Part shown: in pieces, positions 3,557 to 16,527 of the stretch | Layout of the letters: each line of letters opens with the position of its first letter | Position numbering within the stretch: position 1 is the stretch's first letter | Source: a virus | Taxonomy: Duplodnaviria; Caudoviricetes | DNA length: 64,000 bases | Virus record (IMG/VR): IMGVR_UViG_3300028888_000084 | Coordinates: 1-64,000 of that record | Strand: one strand, 5' to 3' | Program-made: the position numbers and the translations under genes | The notes under the pieces: model-generated | What the model was told of the DNA's origin: nothing | Databases searched by the model: none | Seen by the model: only the letters and a program-made list of their open reading frames with translations

Positions 3557-3731
3557 GTTAAGAAATCCATAGTATTAGGATATCCTCAAGTCTTTTCAGT
3601 TCGCCAAAGATTACAGTCTTTGGTTTATGCCAATACTGTGTTGTTCACTTAATTGTGGTAATCCTGTAAGATTATTATTCCACAATATTAAACCTGATAC
3701 TTGCTATCAGCACTTTTTAGCATTTCTTAAC
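3557..3731 (-). ncRNA. candidate structured RNA (5' leader or stand-alone sRNA)
   Basis: Closing stem GTTAAGAAAT/ATTTCTTAAC enclosing several hairpins; begins just after a sigmaA-type promoter; no ORF. Confidence 0.55.
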
Positions 3732-4146: not shown

Positions 4147-4317
4147 TGTAACATAATTGTAACATTTTTGTAACACAAATTTAATATAAATTTAATATTT
4201 CTGTAATATAAATCTTATAAAATGGCTACCCTATGCAATTCTTTATGTTACAAAATTGTAATAAAAACTTAATCTTTTGTAACAAAAATGTAACATAAAT
4301 TTAATATAATTGTAACA
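4147..4317. repeat. two arrays of T(G/T)TAA(C/T)A with 11-bp period
   Basis: Units at 4147, 4158, 4169, 4180, 4191, 4202 and at 4278, 4289, 4300, 4311. Confidence 0.8.
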
Positions 4318-4382
4318 TTTCTAAAGTGCAAATTTTGCACTTTACCTACTGGTAAACAAAAAAAAGAAAGCCTTGTATTTTT

Positions 4383-4664
4383 TTACAAGGCTAATATTTT
4401 TTCGATTAGTTTAATTTTATTTGTTTCAGAATTTGAGGATTCACAAATTTCACTAATTTTTTCAACCTTATTTTTGTCGGAAATAATTTTATCTACATTT
4501 ATAATTTGATTAGGAAATTGCCTAACTTTTTGACCTTCAAATTCTATCACGCAAGTTTTTGGTGATATTGAAATTATAGTTCCTACGCCAAAAAATCTAT
4601 AACCAACTTGCATAAAAATTACTTTCGTGCTTATTTCTAATTCATTTCCGAATACATCTTTCAT
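4383..4664 (-). CDS. hypothetical protein
   Basis: 93-aa ORF with G-run RBS. Confidence 0.75.
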   Translation of the reverse strand: MKDVFGNELEISTKVIFMQVGYRFFGVGTIISISPKTCVIEFEGQKVRQFPNQIINVDKIISDKNKVEKISEICESSNSETNKIKLIEKILAL

Positions 4665-11237: not shown

Positions 11238-13244
11238 TTAGAATGGTATAGAACCGTCAGTCCTAATTGAATGGGTAGCTGAATCGGTTATAGTAGTCCT
11301 ATCGGTTGTAGTAGTCCTATAAGTTCCCCTGTCTGCTACGGCTGATGATACATTAAATCCACTATCAAGTGTAGCATAATCTATATTGCTTGCCCAAGCT
11401 GGTGTTTCTGATAATGTTATTGTAGTATATCCTTCACCAGATAATGTTATTTCTGATTGTCTTGCGATCGGTATTGCTTCTTTTTGCTTTAATGATGTTT
11501 GACCTGTAATACAAGAATTACATATGATACGGCTATCACGATTTCCATTAGTATTTTGATTACAAATAGGACATTTAACTTTTGCACCTATAATTATTGG
11601 TGTATATATTTTTTTCTGCAATATATGTTTGATAGTTGTAGTATATTGATGCGGTATATCATTATAAGCCATATGATAAGGATATGTGTAATCCACATCA
11701 TATTCTTCTTTATTATGTGATACCATCCAATAATCGTCAATATCACAAAAACGACATATATTTTCTTCTAATAATTTACGAGTTTTTTCGGCAACAAGTG
11801 CGTTTGAATAGTGTTGTGGATATTCCCTTGAGAATATACAACGATTTTCTTGTGTATTTACATATATTAATTGTCGCCAGTTTTTAGAATTTCCCTTAAA
11901 TTTTCTTTTTTCTATTACATATTCATATTCTTTATCGTGGCACATATAAGCAACTAAGGTAGATTCGTCAAACATATAAGATGCACAACCTGCTGCGTGT
12001 TCACCTGTTACAAAGTGATGGCAACTACGCCAACCACTTTTTGTTATAGCAGATGTTAAATAATCATATGGATCTATAGATATATATAAATTTTGCTTAA
12101 TACATTTATCTTGTAATATTTTAGATAAGTCTATATCAAACTTTTCATCTTGAAATAAAGATGATAAAAATTTGGATAATTTCATACCCTTTTTAACTTC
12201 ACAATATTCCTTTAAAGAAGAATCACGATCACTTATTTTATTATTCAAATAATCACTTGCAGGAAAAGTATTTAATGTTAATGCGTATTTTGGATACATA
12301 TGATATAATTCAACTAATTGACGCTGTAAATCTAATTCTTGTTTTTCATATTCAACAGTCGTTTTTATATAAAGTTCGTTGTCGAATAACAAATAAAATT
12401 TATATTTACTTCTTGCCCAATCCTTTAACCAAATCTTAATACTATCAGTTGTTGCTCTTTCTTTTATTTCTTCGTGTTTATCTATATTGGCATTTACCAA
12501 ATTCATAATTCTTTTTATATCAACTTTGCTAATCATTTCGTCTATTAAATCTTCTTTATCAACATCTAAATTTCTAACCATATCGTCAATAGATGTGAAA
12601 ACTTTTTGTGGAACAAATTCTTTTTTTACTTTTTCTTCTATTACGAATTTATCAAACAATGCACTTGTCCAACCACTTTTTGCTACATTTTTTATTAACG
12701 AATCTATTAAATTTCTTTCACCTGACGATCCATTATGAAATGCGTCATAAGTAAAATAAAAGATATACTTTTCTTCTTCTTCATTTTTATAAACTATTAA
12801 TAATGGAAATTCAGTTTTTTCATTTTTAGATAAGCAAAAAGTTTTTTCTTGATTATAATATTTATTCATATCTTCGTCATATGGTAAATAAATCCAATCT
12901 TCAATTAAATCATATTTGTTAAAAATATTCATCATATCTGTAGAAAAATCATCGAAATCTTCTGCTGAATATTCATAATAATTATCTCCGTGAAAACCCC
13001 AGTTTACAAATACAATCGATTTTTGTGGTAAATCTTTACATAGATTTTTTGGTGATAATGGCTTCATATTATTATGTCCGTGATTATCCAATACCACATA
13101 AGTATAAGAATCAAATTGTTCATCACTCATTTTTTCTTTAAAGAAATCCCTTAAATAAAAGTCATACAGCTTTTCAAGAGAACTTGTAAATGAATGTGAA
13201 ACCAATTCAATTCCCCCTAAATCTAATTCTTCGTATTTTTTCAT
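11238..13244 (-). CDS. large hypothetical protein with SIDPxD..WxSCH domain; paralog of 7013-8530
   Basis: GMKLSKFLS, SIDPYDYLT, WRSCH, CPIC..CNSC; start moved to MKKYEE after an AAGGGGG RBS. Confidence 0.8.
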   Translation of the reverse strand: MKKYEELDLGGIELVSHSFTSSLEKLYDFYLRDFFKEKMSDEQFDSYTYVVLDNHGHNNMKPLSPKNLCKDLPQKSIVFVNWGFHGDNYYEYSAEDFDDFSTDMMNIFNKYDLIEDWIYLPYDEDMNKYYNQEKTFCLSKNEKTEFPLLIVYKNEEEEKYIFYFTYDAFHNGSSGERNLIDSLIKNVAKSGWTSALFDKFVIEEKVKKEFVPQKVFTSIDDMVRNLDVDKEDLIDEMISKVDIKRIMNLVNANIDKHEEIKERATTDSIKIWLKDWARSKYKFYLLFDNELYIKTTVEYEKQELDLQRQLVELYHMYPKYALTLNTFPASDYLNNKISDRDSSLKEYCEVKKGMKLSKFLSSLFQDEKFDIDLSKILQDKCIKQNLYISIDPYDYLTSAITKSGWRSCHHFVTGEHAAGCASYMFDESTLVAYMCHDKEYEYVIEKRKFKGNSKNWRQLIYVNTQENRCIFSREYPQHYSNALVAEKTRKLLEENICRFCDIDDYWMVSHNKEEYDVDYTYPYHMAYNDIPHQYTTTIKHILQKKIYTPIIIGAKVKCPICNQNTNGNRDSRIICNSCITGQTSLKQKEAIPIARQSEITLSGEGYTTITLSETPAWASNIDYATLDSGFNVSSAVADRGTYRTTTTDRTTITDSATHSIRTDGSIPF

Positions 13245-13360
13245 AAATAAAACCCCCTTTTGAATTTTTGGTTTGTTCAACCTTGACTATAAAAATTATA
13301 TCGCAAAAACATCTTACCTGTCAAGTTTTTGCATTATTTTAAATTTTTATTAAAAATTCA

Positions 13361-13391
13361 CAAAAGCAAGGCATTTGTCGCCTTGCTTTTG
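13361..13391 (-). terminator. Rho-independent terminator
   Basis: CAAAAGCAAGGC-7 nt-GCCTTGCTTTTG. Confidence 0.8.
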
Positions 13392-13407
13392 CTTTTATAT
13401 CAAATTG

Positions 13408-13761
13408 TGCTTGACTGTGCAGCCACGTGGGAAACCACACGTTATTACCTCATCCGATTAACCATTAATCATGGATTTAATAATATTTAATGACTTTGTT
13501 ATTTCAACTTTAAGAAAGAAGAATTTTAATGCTTAACCTTTATCCCTTAAATTTTGAACTTCTAACGGTATCAATGGACTCAGTTAAATAGATTCAACAA
13601 TCTATTTGGTGTCCACCACTAGAACGATTTTATCGTTTCAACACATTAACATATCGCTTTGTTGGTGCGGTATTGTTAAATAAAGGGGCGTCAATACGCC
13701 AGCTGTATCATTTACCCAATGATAAAGGGGAGATAAATCGTGGTTTTCGCACAACCAAGCA
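13408..13761 (-). ncRNA. candidate large structured ncRNA (~354 nt)
   Basis: 13-bp terminal stem UGCUUGGUUGUGC/GCACAGUCAAGCA with two G-U pairs; at least 5 internal hairpins; heptad repeat tract; no ORF; followed by a terminator. Confidence 0.7.
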
Positions 13762-13768
13762 TATAGGT

Positions 13769-14404
13769 TTAATCTATTAAATTGACAGTAATTTTAGTAA
13801 TTGTGTTGCTTTCTGATAATTTGTAATCAACTTCTGACTCAAATTCGTCAATTTCTTTTTCTAATTCATTGATTACATCATTTATTTTGCACGGATCTAC
13901 TAAATAATATTCATTATTATCATAGAATTGTTTTTCAAATTTGGCAACTACTTCAGGATCACTTTTATCTTTTTCGCCAATTACGGATTTCAGGTAACTT
14001 TCCAAATTATTCTTCAATGATTCATTCTTTGTTTCTATATTATGCATGGCATTTACATATTGTGCTTTTAATTCAGCAAGTAATTTTCTTTCCATATCTA
14101 TCATTGATTTTCTTTCTATTGCTTCAGCAACAGTATATTCTTTATCGCCAATAGTAATTTTCGTATTAGCATTTGATAAAACAATCGCAGATTTTACAAT
14201 CTTTTTGTTTTCCATTAAAGCCCTTACACTATCCAAATCTCCTTTTAATAAATCAGAATATTCTTGTATTGTGTAACTTCCGATTTTGTCATTTCCTTTC
14301 TTTGTGTAGGTTACAAAACTTTTGTTAAGTCCCTTCCAAATTTTATTGTCGTATAATTTTAATTCTGCTAATGCTTGATGTATAGACATCACTTTTTCTG
14401 CCAT
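13769..14404 (-). CDS. coiled-coil protein resembling the DIP1984/DUF6847 family
   Basis: MSIHQALAELK...SNANTKI.I....YTVAEAIERK...LEKEIDEFESEVDYKLSESN.IT.I; family assignment is from recollection. Confidence 0.6.
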   Translation of the reverse strand: MAEKVMSIHQALAELKLYDNKIWKGLNKSFVTYTKKGNDKIGSYTIQEYSDLLKGDLDSVRALMENKKIVKSAIVLSNANTKITIGDKEYTVAEAIERKSMIDMERKLLAELKAQYVNAMHNIETKNESLKNNLESYLKSVIGEKDKSDPEVVAKFEKQFYDNNEYYLVDPCKINDVINELEKEIDEFESEVDYKLSESNTITKITVNLID

Positions 14405-14445
14405 TTCACATTACCTCCTAAATTTTAATTTTTGAACTTTATAAA

Positions 14446-14553
14446 ATTATTAAAGCCACAATCGTTGCCTTCAGTATGTGGTAAACAGCAACTCACCCCT
14501 CACCCTTATACGTTCTTTTCCAAACGACCACATTTGGTGGTGGCTTTAATAAT
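14446..14553 (-). ncRNA. candidate ~108-nt structured RNA with possible pseudoknot
   Basis: 14-bp perfect closing stem ATTATTAAAGCCAC/GTGGCTTTAATAAT; internal GTTGC/GCAAC hairpin whose loop ACCACAT is complementary to ATGTGGT. Confidence 0.55.
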
Positions 14554-14626
14554 GGTGATAGCGGTCGGACTTACACCGACATCAACACCCCCTGCGGATG
14601 CCGTTTTATAATTAAACTACACTATC
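14553..14626 (-). tRNA. non-canonical tRNA-like RNA with encoded CCA (nominal anticodon CAG)
   Basis: Full cloverleaf: acceptor GATAGTG/CGCTATC + A + CCA; D stem GTTT/AAAC; anticodon stem GCATC/GGTGT; T stem GTCGG/CCGAC; all loops deviate from consensus. Confidence 0.7.
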
Positions 14627-14639
14627 ATATTTATTATGG

Positions 14640-15080
14640 TTATATTATATCATTATTGTAATATTTTGTCAAGTATTCTTTTATCATCTCCTGTGTTTTT
14701 TCTAAACCATTACGTTTTAGATATCTATTAACATATCCCCTTCCCCTTTTAATAATATAAGACCATTCGTTTCCACTATGAATTACACCATCTATTTCTA
14801 TTATATTTGTTGTTGACTTAAATCTTGAATTTTCTTCTTTTGTTATCCACCTACAATTATCGGGTGAATAATCTTTAGTGCTATCTATTCTATCAATAGT
14901 TAATATATCATTGTAACCATTATCAAATGACCATTTAAAAAAATTTTCTTGATTTATTAGCCAGTCATCACAGATTCTTATGTTTTTAGCACCGTAAAAC
15001 CTATAATCTTTATCTAATTTATTATAACATCTTGAATACATTTTTGCAAATATAATTTTTAATCGTCTGTTTTTATTCAT
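14640..15080 (-). CDS. HNH-type homing endonuclease-like protein
   Basis: MYSRCYN....Y..YGAK.I.ICDDW...TIDRIDS...YSPDNCRWIT..EN. Confidence 0.75.
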   Translation of the reverse strand: MNKNRRLKIIFAKMYSRCYNKLDKDYRFYGAKNIRICDDWLINQENFFKWSFDNGYNDILTIDRIDSTKDYSPDNCRWITKEENSRFKSTTNIIEIDGVIHSGNEWSYIIKRGRGYVNRYLKRNGLEKTQEMIKEYLTKYYNNDII

Positions 15081-15191
15081 ATGATAACCCCTTTATATGT
15101 ATCGTGGGACTGAGCAAATTGAGTAAAAACCAGTCCCACAATCTATTTTAAATTTATGGAGGACATAAGGTTTCATCAACCTTACAATCAT

Positions 15192-15220
15192 ATTCTATCA
15201 TAGGCATCACGAATTGTCAA
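15192..15220 (-). promoter_or_regulatory. sigmaA-type promoter driving the HNH/tRNA-like/ncRNA operon
   Basis: TTGACA-17 bp-TAGAAT. Confidence 0.7.
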
Positions 15221-15234
15221 GCATTTTTTAAAAT

Positions 15235-16527
15235 TTATTTATAACTTACTTCTTTACCTTCTTCACGTAATTCATCAAAAACAGGAAATCTTAAAGACTT
15301 CTTGCCTTCTTTATTTTGTGTTTCTTCAAAGTATCTAACCTTGATAACTCTACCAACAAGTTTATCACGATTTGCCCAAAAATAATCACGTTCATCAGAC
15401 GTAAATCCACTACCTACATTAAGAATACTTCCTTTATAATCAACCAGTATAGCACCTAATGTGTCCTTGAACCTGCCTTCCCCCTCTTGAAATCCCAAAA
15501 TTTCCAAGTCGCAATCTTGCATAACTTTTACTTTTAACAAATTGTTAGTCCTTTTGAAATCATAAACTGCGTCATTCAAATTTATCATTATTCCTTCTTC
15601 GCCATCTTTTCTTGCTCGTGTAAGAAGTTCACCTATTTTATTTATATCATTACCAGAATACAATGCAGGAACTACTTTTACAAAGTTTAATTTAGAAAAT
15701 ATTTTCTCTAAAACATATCTTCTTTGTGCATAAGAAAATGTGCATTTTTTATTGTCAAATTCTTTGAATGATAATATGTCAAAAGCCAGCAGTTGAACAC
15801 CGTGTTTTTCGCCATCTTTGGTTACAATTTCAATGGTTTTTTTATACTGTATTTTGCTTGGAAATTTCTTACGATCTAGTATCATAATTTCGCCATCTAA
15901 AACAAAGTTATCGCAATCAAAATTTGATAATTCATTTACTATATCTACTAGTCCATCTATCTTTTGTCCTTGTCTTGAATATACTGTAATTTTGCCTTCA
16001 TTCTTTATCAGAATACAGCGAATTCCATCAAATTTTGTAGTTATCGTAAAGTTTTTACCATCTACAATTTCAGGTTTTTCAAAATATTTATTCGCCAACA
16101 TAACTTGAAAATCTGGTAAAAAATTAGGAATGGCAGTATTTACAAGTTTGATATTACATCCTATTTTTAATTTTTTTGTAATAATTTCTTCGATAAATGT
16201 AGCATATTCAGCACCATAAATTCTTGATATAGCTCTTAAACTATTCTGAACATAATTGATATCTAAATCAGTTCCAGTATTATGTTTTAACAAATATTTA
16301 AACAGATTTTTAACGTCAATATTTCCTTCATGCGTGATTTCTATGGTAAATTTTTTATTCAATTTATTCGTAGAAATTCCAAAAATATTGTCTGGATTTA
16401 GTAACATATCTAGTAAAAACAAGAAGTCTTTATTATCTTTATTAGCCTTTAAAATTTCTATTTTTTCTAATTTGGAATTGGTATTCGACAAAGAATCGAA
16501 TATGGCTTTATTTTTTGCAAGATCCAT
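15235..16527 (-). CDS. lig: ATP-dependent DNA ligase
   Basis: KFDGIR adenylation motif, LDGE, FDIL, EGIM, LLKVK, VGSGF, SLRFPVF. Confidence 0.95.
   Translation of the reverse strand: MDLAKNKAIFDSLSNTNSKLEKIEILKANKDNKDFLFLLDMLLNPDNIFGISTNKLNKKFTIEITHEGNIDVKNLFKYLLKHNTGTDLDINYVQNSLRAISRIYGAEYATFIEEIITKKLKIGCNIKLVNTAIPNFLPDFQVMLANKYFEKPEIVDGKNFTITTKFDGIRCILIKNEGKITVYSRQGQKIDGLVDIVNELSNFDCDNFVLDGEIMILDRKKFPSKIQYKKTIEIVTKDGEKHGVQLLAFDILSFKEFDNKKCTFSYAQRRYVLEKIFSKLNFVKVVPALYSGNDINKIGELLTRARKDGEEGIMINLNDAVYDFKRTNNLLKVKVMQDCDLEILGFQEGEGRFKDTLGAILVDYKGSILNVGSGFTSDERDYFWANRDKLVGRVIKVRYFEETQNKEGKKSLRFPVFDELREEGKEVSYK

Follow-up and report, generated by a model that had tools for sequence, protein, structure and literature searches.

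A 7-nucleotide unit shared by a structured phage RNA and the leader of its phrog_1491 gene: possible autorepression by target mimicry

Why should a row of 7-nt repeats in a structured noncoding RNA of a rumen phage reappear directly ahead of the Shine-Dalgarno (SD) sequence of the gene beside it? The locus lies in a 64-kb stretch of DNA that was analysed as a whole (the window, to which all coordinates refer) and that belongs to a 99-kb phage record from rumen or sheep gut. A first-pass annotation of the window had proposed that an oligomer of the encoded protein binds one heptad per subunit and represses its own translation once the RNA is saturated. Gene and RNA belong to a single promoter-to-terminator unit on the minus strand, extending from 14672 to 13360 (Table 1). 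The tRNA-like element of this unit has no Rfam tRNA match. The structured insert that follows it is missing from a ~97% identical relative (DNA run X3; joint 14436/14544), in which the three leader heptads are kept; the joint falls within the TAAAG direct repeat, indicating an insertion or deletion event that left the leader heptads intact.

Table 1. Features of the minus-strand transcription unit in the window
Feature	Position	Strand	Basis or remark
Promoter	14644..14672	-	TTGACA-17-TATAAT, 12/12 matches, TG extension; sigma-70-type
tRNA-like element, transcript 5' end	14553..14626	-	ARAGORN: tRNA-Leu cag
Structured 107-nt insert between tRNA-like element and leader	14437..14543	-	Fold; flanking TAAAG direct repeat
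Leader heptads AAGUUCA-AAAAUUA-AAAUUUA	14419..14439	-	Sequence; best 3-unit array of the window
Shine-Dalgarno sequence GGAGG	14414..14418	-	9 nt upstream of the ATG at 14404
211-aa ORF, phrog_1491	13769..14404	-	ORF and profile match
Structured RNA, 354 nt	13408..13761	-	Covariation architecture and RNA contigs
Main heptad tract of the RNA, six units	13520..13561	-	Sequence, alignment, array scoring
Second, looser run of heptad-like units	13479..13513	-	After UUCUUCUUUC spacer, leads into P3; read from the sequence
Intrinsic terminator closing the unit	13360..13392	-	3' of the structured RNA

The unit is immediately preceded by an HNH endonuclease gene (phrog_3377, E = 3e-33; window 14640-15080). 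Phage tRNA regions often contain homing-type nucleases, and one also adjoins the copy of the gene in phage Ro1. Just past the terminator of the unit, a second perfect sigma-70-type promoter (13295-13324, 12/12 matches) starts the next gene, which encodes 680 aa (phrog_18912).

The six units read in the RNA by the first-pass annotation (AAGTTCA-AAATTTA-AGGGATA-AAGGTTA-AGCATTA-AAATTCT, 13561-13520, minus strand) are present as described and form the top-scoring array of the window, at 19.8 bits; the maxima of 40 shuffles had a mean of 14.3 and never exceeded 18.3. In a MAFFT alignment of 26 RNAs, with those of T5 and a Vibrio phage included, the units stay in register with a strict 7-nt period. 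An A is invariant at RNA positions 214, 221, 228, 235, and 242 of these 26 sequences (13555, 13548, 13541, 13534, and 13527 in the window), and a U is nearly invariant two bases ahead of the invariant A, at positions 205, 212, 219, 226, 233, and 240. Read from this alignment, the RNA unit is U-N-A-(A)-R-N-N with the core U-N-A-A. Heptad tracts occur in 29/29 IMG/VR lineages and 9/9 named phages examined, and the window RNA carries at least five in-phase 7-nt units with the U-N-A core. The tract had also been described as apparently unpaired. No covarying partner was found for it, which favors that description, but its pairing probability is 0.56 versus 0.61 elsewhere in the RNA, so that energy models fail to separate the tract from the rest and add little in its favor.

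From its near-invariant U onward, the heptad unit (U-N-A-A-R) fits anticodon-loop rules, with U33, an NAA anticodon, and a purine at position 37. Gene and RNA are situated nearly always inside or beside phage tRNA clusters.

Every lineage examined has an ORF-free gap of about 300 to 750 nt 3' of the gene, and gene and RNA co-occur in all lineages examined, with hosts spanning Proteobacteria to Bacillota. Anchoring on conserved motifs reveals a common architecture in 29/38 lineages. P1, a closing helix of 10 to 14 bp flanked by GAAA(A)C at the 5' side and CU at the 3' side, has strands that are complementary within each of these 29 lineages and unrelated in sequence between lineages. In the 5-bp helix P3 (AAAUC-CNNG / CNNGG-CU), four of five pairs vary in a compensatory manner, with no more than one break among 26 sequences. 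The segment after GAAAAC pairs with the P3 loop (P2, AACCAC/GUGGUU) and thereby creates a pseudoknot; both the helix and the pseudoknot come from visual inspection of about ten sequences, without a formal count. RNAalifold on the MAFFT alignment returned P3 only, P1 and P2 being obtained by motif anchoring, and a diagonal scan of the 26-sequence alignment gave just five well-paired P1 columns because the alignment shifts. The window RNA follows this architecture: it begins directly after the stop codon, its P1 comprises 13 bp (13761-13749 with 13420-13408) flanked by GAAAAC (13748-13743) and CU, and CCAUG (13474-13470) pairs with CGUGG (13427-13423) in the covarying P3.

The leader of the gene reads as the first-pass annotation had it: AAGTTCA-AAAATTA-AAATTTA (14439-14419), followed by GGAGG (14418-14414) and the ATG at 14404. 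Its U-N-A cores (14435-14433, 14428-14426, and 14421-14419) are spaced at exactly 7 nt, and the last A touches the SD sequence. Exact sharing of AAGTTCAAAA by tract and leader, to which attention had also been drawn, is real but weak alone, with 3 occurrences in the window versus 0.81 expected and 7/100 shuffles reaching 3. The three-unit array of the leader ranks first among ~128,000 positions (both strands of the 64-kb window). Its score of 12.5 is within the shuffle range, and a comparable three-unit array can arise by chance in 128 kb; against dinucleotide shuffles of the leader itself, P is 0.007. The array is informative by its position rather than by the height of its score. No further SD-adjacent array was found in the 64-kb window, in which the other top matches lie away from SD sequences, and a single such array gives no sign of a regulon.

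Whether the leader array recurs was assessed with a weight matrix built from the RNA tracts only, with which positions -44 to -5 of the family gene were scored and compared with 84 to 90 SD-bearing leaders of other ORFs at the same loci. Family leaders clearly exceed these controls (medians, 5.0 versus -1.1 bits; P = 3e-7; 38 lineages). After genome and T5-like loci were added, giving 51 lineages (clusters at 70% identity), 14/51 lay above the control 99th percentile (Mann-Whitney P = 4.6e-5), including T5-like phages, Brevibacillus phage Jenst, Raoultella phage Ro1, and Erwinia phage Rebecca. The leader arrays end 15 to 19 nt ahead of the start codon, i.e., at the SD sequence. The objection that an AT-rich background could produce such heptads was addressed by dinucleotide shuffles of each leader, scored against that leader's composition as background; 10/51 lineages reached P < 0.05 (binomial P = 1.9e-4; Fisher's combined P = 8e-6).

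The expectation that the leader heptads recur in homologs was thus borne out in part, for 14/51 lineages in distant clades, whereas the other 37/51 fall below the strict cutoff. About 60 to 70% of lineages are without leader heptads, including chromosomal copies in Lysinibacillus, Sporosarcina, and Brevibacillus. On the protein tree, the leader trait occurs in at least three clades, and well-supported branches force at least six changes. These clades are the window's own (7/12), an enterobacterial clade with T5, Ro1, and Rebecca (3/3), and one with Jenst and three further lineages (L127, L128, and L081). In T5-like phages (27 loci), the three units nearest the SD sequence vary only by C/T at the free N position. 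A metagenome scan for close relatives gave only two loci, at 50% identity, and both have four leader units (TCA-TCA-TCA-TAA) ahead of AGGAG. Periodicity analysis across homologs, suggested earlier as a check, therefore finds heptads that are phase-locked in the 26 aligned RNAs and recur at the cognate SD sequence. As far as sequence comparison goes, the comparative evidence for shared heptads is decisive, the arrays within the single window being only moderately unusual.

The window protein is a member of phrog_1491 (E = 4.4e-59 over aa 4 to 208 of 211), a family of ~205 to 215 aa with relatives in 744 phage records, among them T5-like, Felix-O1-like/Otagovirus, Vequintavirinae, Thalassavirus, Bastille-like, Lactococcus 949-like, and jumbo Erwinia phages. 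The family further comprises over 1,300 metagenomic proteins as well as copies on Bacillota chromosomes. The phrog_1491 label "tail fiber" is probably a misnomer. The annotation "tail fiber protein" has spread over hundreds of GenBank and RefSeq phage records, T5 relatives among them, and neither the sequence and fold of the protein nor the place of its gene in the genome (early or tRNA regions) supports it. Sequence searches of Pfam, NCBIfam, and PDB with the window protein gave no family match, and its Pfam search gave no match to TRAP (TrpBP), CsrA, Sm/Hfq, or HutP domains. The AlphaFold model (pLDDT, 91.6) is a long, elongated bundle, all alpha apart from a small three-part beta sheet. Its best fold match is 3kdq, a protein with no assigned function (Foldseek E = 0.02; rmsd = 9.3 over 150 residues; Z = 9.2, which is weak for a helical bundle), and the rest are generic helical bundles; DUF6847 / DIP1984-like (3kdq) is a distant Atlas lead only (0.88; TM, 0.47), with no Pfam match. 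No known RNA-binding relative was found among the fold matches.

The window protein probably self-associates as dimers, judging from complex prediction. With four copies, the self-association score was 0.50 versus 0.28 for the best control, a mark reached in calibration by 20/30 proteins solved as pairs and 1/23 solved as single chains. Contact agreement between runs was at least 83%, and partner pLDDT was at least 82. The predicted interface is that of a symmetric pair of two copies, neither a ring nor a head-to-tail chain. The earlier proposal of a TRAP- or Sm-like ring with one heptad per subunit therefore finds no support: the protein is an all-alpha bundle without TRAP or Sm signature, and the oligomer prediction that was to have tested for a ring gave a symmetric pair.

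The RNA was detected in two metatranscriptome runs of one sheep-gut sample, where contigs coincide with the window RNA (one of depth 201 covering 13409-13743, another of depth 38 covering 13413-13749). ORF contigs had depths of 3.7 to 8.2 in one run, and the ORF had no coverage in the other. Run X5 has an RNA contig for the structured 5' part of the transcript (14454-14610) but none for the ORF. A further RNA run, X21, gave no contig at the locus. As depths of assembled contigs from one sample, these values hint at a stable, abundant RNA rather than measure it.

Sequence comparison places the same element in the RNA and at the gene's own ribosome-binding site, and the best reading of the locus, with a probability of about 0.45, is autogenous translational repression by target mimicry (Nomura-type or CsrA-like). 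One transcript would give rise to the 211-aa helical protein and to a stable, pseudoknotted 354-nt RNA displaying a row of 7-nt units with the core U-N-A-A. The protein, probably as dimers, would bind the units of the RNA and form a protein-RNA particle. The high-copy sites of the RNA would be filled first, and free protein would then bind the three leader units at the SD sequence, block the ribosome, and shut off its own translation. Such leader repression would fix the stoichiometry of the particle, as had been supposed from the start. Each link in this chain (the neighboring protein as binder, repression upon binding, and priority of the RNA sites over the leader) is presumptive. Across very different hosts, no partner of the RNA other than the co-encoded protein is constant, which makes this protein the likely reader of the heptads, and the occurrence of the same unit in the RNA and 5' of the SD sequence in distant clades would be expected if one protein binds both and represses itself. 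Since most lineages are without leader heptads, autoregulation would be an optional rather than a defining feature. The units might conceivably act at the DNA level instead, as they resemble -10 hexamers such as TAAAAT.

Parallels to the proposed circuit exist in several well-characterized systems. As in ribosomal-protein operons (Nomura model; for example, S8, L1, S15, and L20), a primary RNA target would be accompanied by a mimic at the protein's own ribosome-binding region, and protein synthesis would be matched to free RNA sites; the mimic there is folded, whereas here it is a phased 7-nt row, the RNA is a phage noncoding RNA, and binding is putative. The CsrA/RsmA-CsrB/RsmZ systems likewise combine a noncoding RNA bearing many short motif copies with a motif that overlaps the SD sequences of regulated leaders, including that of csrA itself. 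However, CsrA recognizes GGA in hairpin loops at irregular spacing rather than U-N-A-A units at 7 nt, and it is a small beta-strand dimer encoded away from its RNA. TRAP of Bacillus also recognizes short units spaced evenly along single-stranded RNA and occludes the SD sequence at some targets (trpG and trpP), but it does so with 11 G/UAG triplets at a 5- to 6-nt period and a beta-sandwich 11-mer ring, in contrast to the helical, predicted pair described here. Sm/Hfq proteins, with the Sm fold and rings of 6 to 7 subunits, differ from the helical model of the window protein. HutP on hut terminator RNA shares the 7-nt period (a UAG triplet core with 4-nt spacers), but the third core base here is an invariant A, not G. 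HutP is, in addition, an alpha/beta hexamer that acts in antitermination on 2 x 3 sites, and searches gave no sequence or fold similarity between it and the window protein. T4 gene 32 protein fills its preferred sites and then cooperatively binds an unstructured A/U-rich leader beside a 5' structured element, blocking its own translation. It is thus a phage protein whose preferred sites are filled before its own leader is bound, as proposed here, although its primary ligand is single-stranded DNA, it has an OB fold, and it has no dedicated RNA partner.

Other explanations of the shared heptads are each less probable than repression by target mimicry. The protein could mainly repress mRNAs, its own among them, with the heptad RNA acting as a titrating decoy, like CsrB for CsrA, rather than as the core of a particle. 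The motif logic would be identical, and the RNA is far more abundant than the mRNA, as sponge RNAs are; against this stand the lack of a second SD-adjacent array in the 64-kb window and the elaborate, conserved, pseudoknotted fold that the RNA has besides its repeats, and a sponge is regarded as rather unlikely. It is unlikely, too, that the reader is a host factor, or that the ribosome uses the units as an A/U-rich enhancer, in which case the leader units would tune translation, the RNA would be a decoy, and the protein would act elsewhere. The units are indeed A/U-rich, some heptads contain AAGG, and the protein has no recognizable RNA-binding fold. Nevertheless, the 7-nt phase and the U-N-A core are kept across Escherichia coli, Vibrio, Pseudomonas, Bacillus, Lactococcus, and rumen Clostridia hosts, the constant element across those hosts is the co-encoded protein, and control leaders of the same phages are without arrays.

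If the leader array were due to chance or AT-rich composition, only the RNA tract would be functional. Window-wide shuffles reach similar three-unit scores, and the array is absent from most lineages, yet the matched-control and own-composition shuffle tests are significant, the array keeps a fixed distance to the start codon, turns up in separate clades, and is conserved among T5-like phages except at the free N, and the first-ranked array of the window sits exactly at the cognate SD sequence, all of which makes a chance origin quite improbable. Least probable, and only a slim prospect, is bridging in cis, whereby protein bound at both ends of the transcript would affect processing, stability, or cotranslational assembly rather than repress translation. 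Both sites do lie on one transcript (14672 to 13360), a symmetric dimer such as that predicted could engage two segments of RNA at once, and stable 5' and 3' RNA pieces without the ORF are seen in run X5. However, the RNA accumulates as a separate, abundant species, so that most of it is detached from the leader, and bridging has no precedent within the protein family.

A wider reading of the locus is held tentatively, at odds short of even: the pair may represent a widespread, undescribed phage ribonucleoprotein in which a new helical RNA-binding fold reads a rail of 7-nt U-N-A-A units within a pseudoknotted ~350-nt RNA, with a short copy of the rail at the SD sequence serving as translational operator in several clades, and it may act on tRNA biology or anticodon-targeting host defences. 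Such a particle would be distributed over T5-like, Felix-O1-like, Vequintavirinae, Bastille-like, jumbo, and rumen phages and Bacillota chromosomes. Action on tRNA biology or anticodon-targeting defences is suggested by the tRNA-cluster location together with the anticodon-loop likeness (U33-N-A-A-R37). The regulatory logic of repression by target mimicry is classical, with free RNA sites sensed through a mimic at the protein's own ribosome-binding site, whereas the players are new: a protein family without a Pfam entry and a structured, abundant RNA that is represented in public catalogues by a fragment only. The shared unit is the first concrete and cheap handle on which protein binds the RNA. 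Through it, the putative RNA binding, its code (U-N-A-A every 7 nt), and the proposed feedback can all be addressed together, a possible route to what the particle does in the many tRNA-rich phages that carry it.

The catalogued fragment is RAGATH-27 (RF03100), which matches the first ~86 nt of the RNA class in one subclade (the P1 5' strand, CGAAAAC, and the first hairpin). Three lineages score above its gathering threshold of 76.1 bits (L022, 97 bits at 2668-2752; L011, 88 bits at 2668-2753; and L042, 82 bits at 2667-2750), and five more match below the gathering score. Rfam searches of the region 12800-15300 gave no match to the window RNA at the gathering threshold or at E <= 10, and no paper on the protein-RNA pair or on RAGATH-27 was found. 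Unlike the RNA class described here, the RAGATH-27 model consists of one hairpin, without the heptad tract, P2/P3, or the closing helix, and its entry records neither a function nor a protein partner. Since only the first ~86 nt are covered, the catalogued motif seems to represent one part of a far larger RNA. Other catalogued RNAs neighbor the gene in two lineages. In Brevibacillus phage Jenst (L001), a skipping-rope RNA (RF02924) is located between the gene stop and the heptad RNA and is followed by a BsrG match (3625-3702 and 4160-4434), and in L042, a FuFi-1 RNA lies upstream of the gene (1664-1836).
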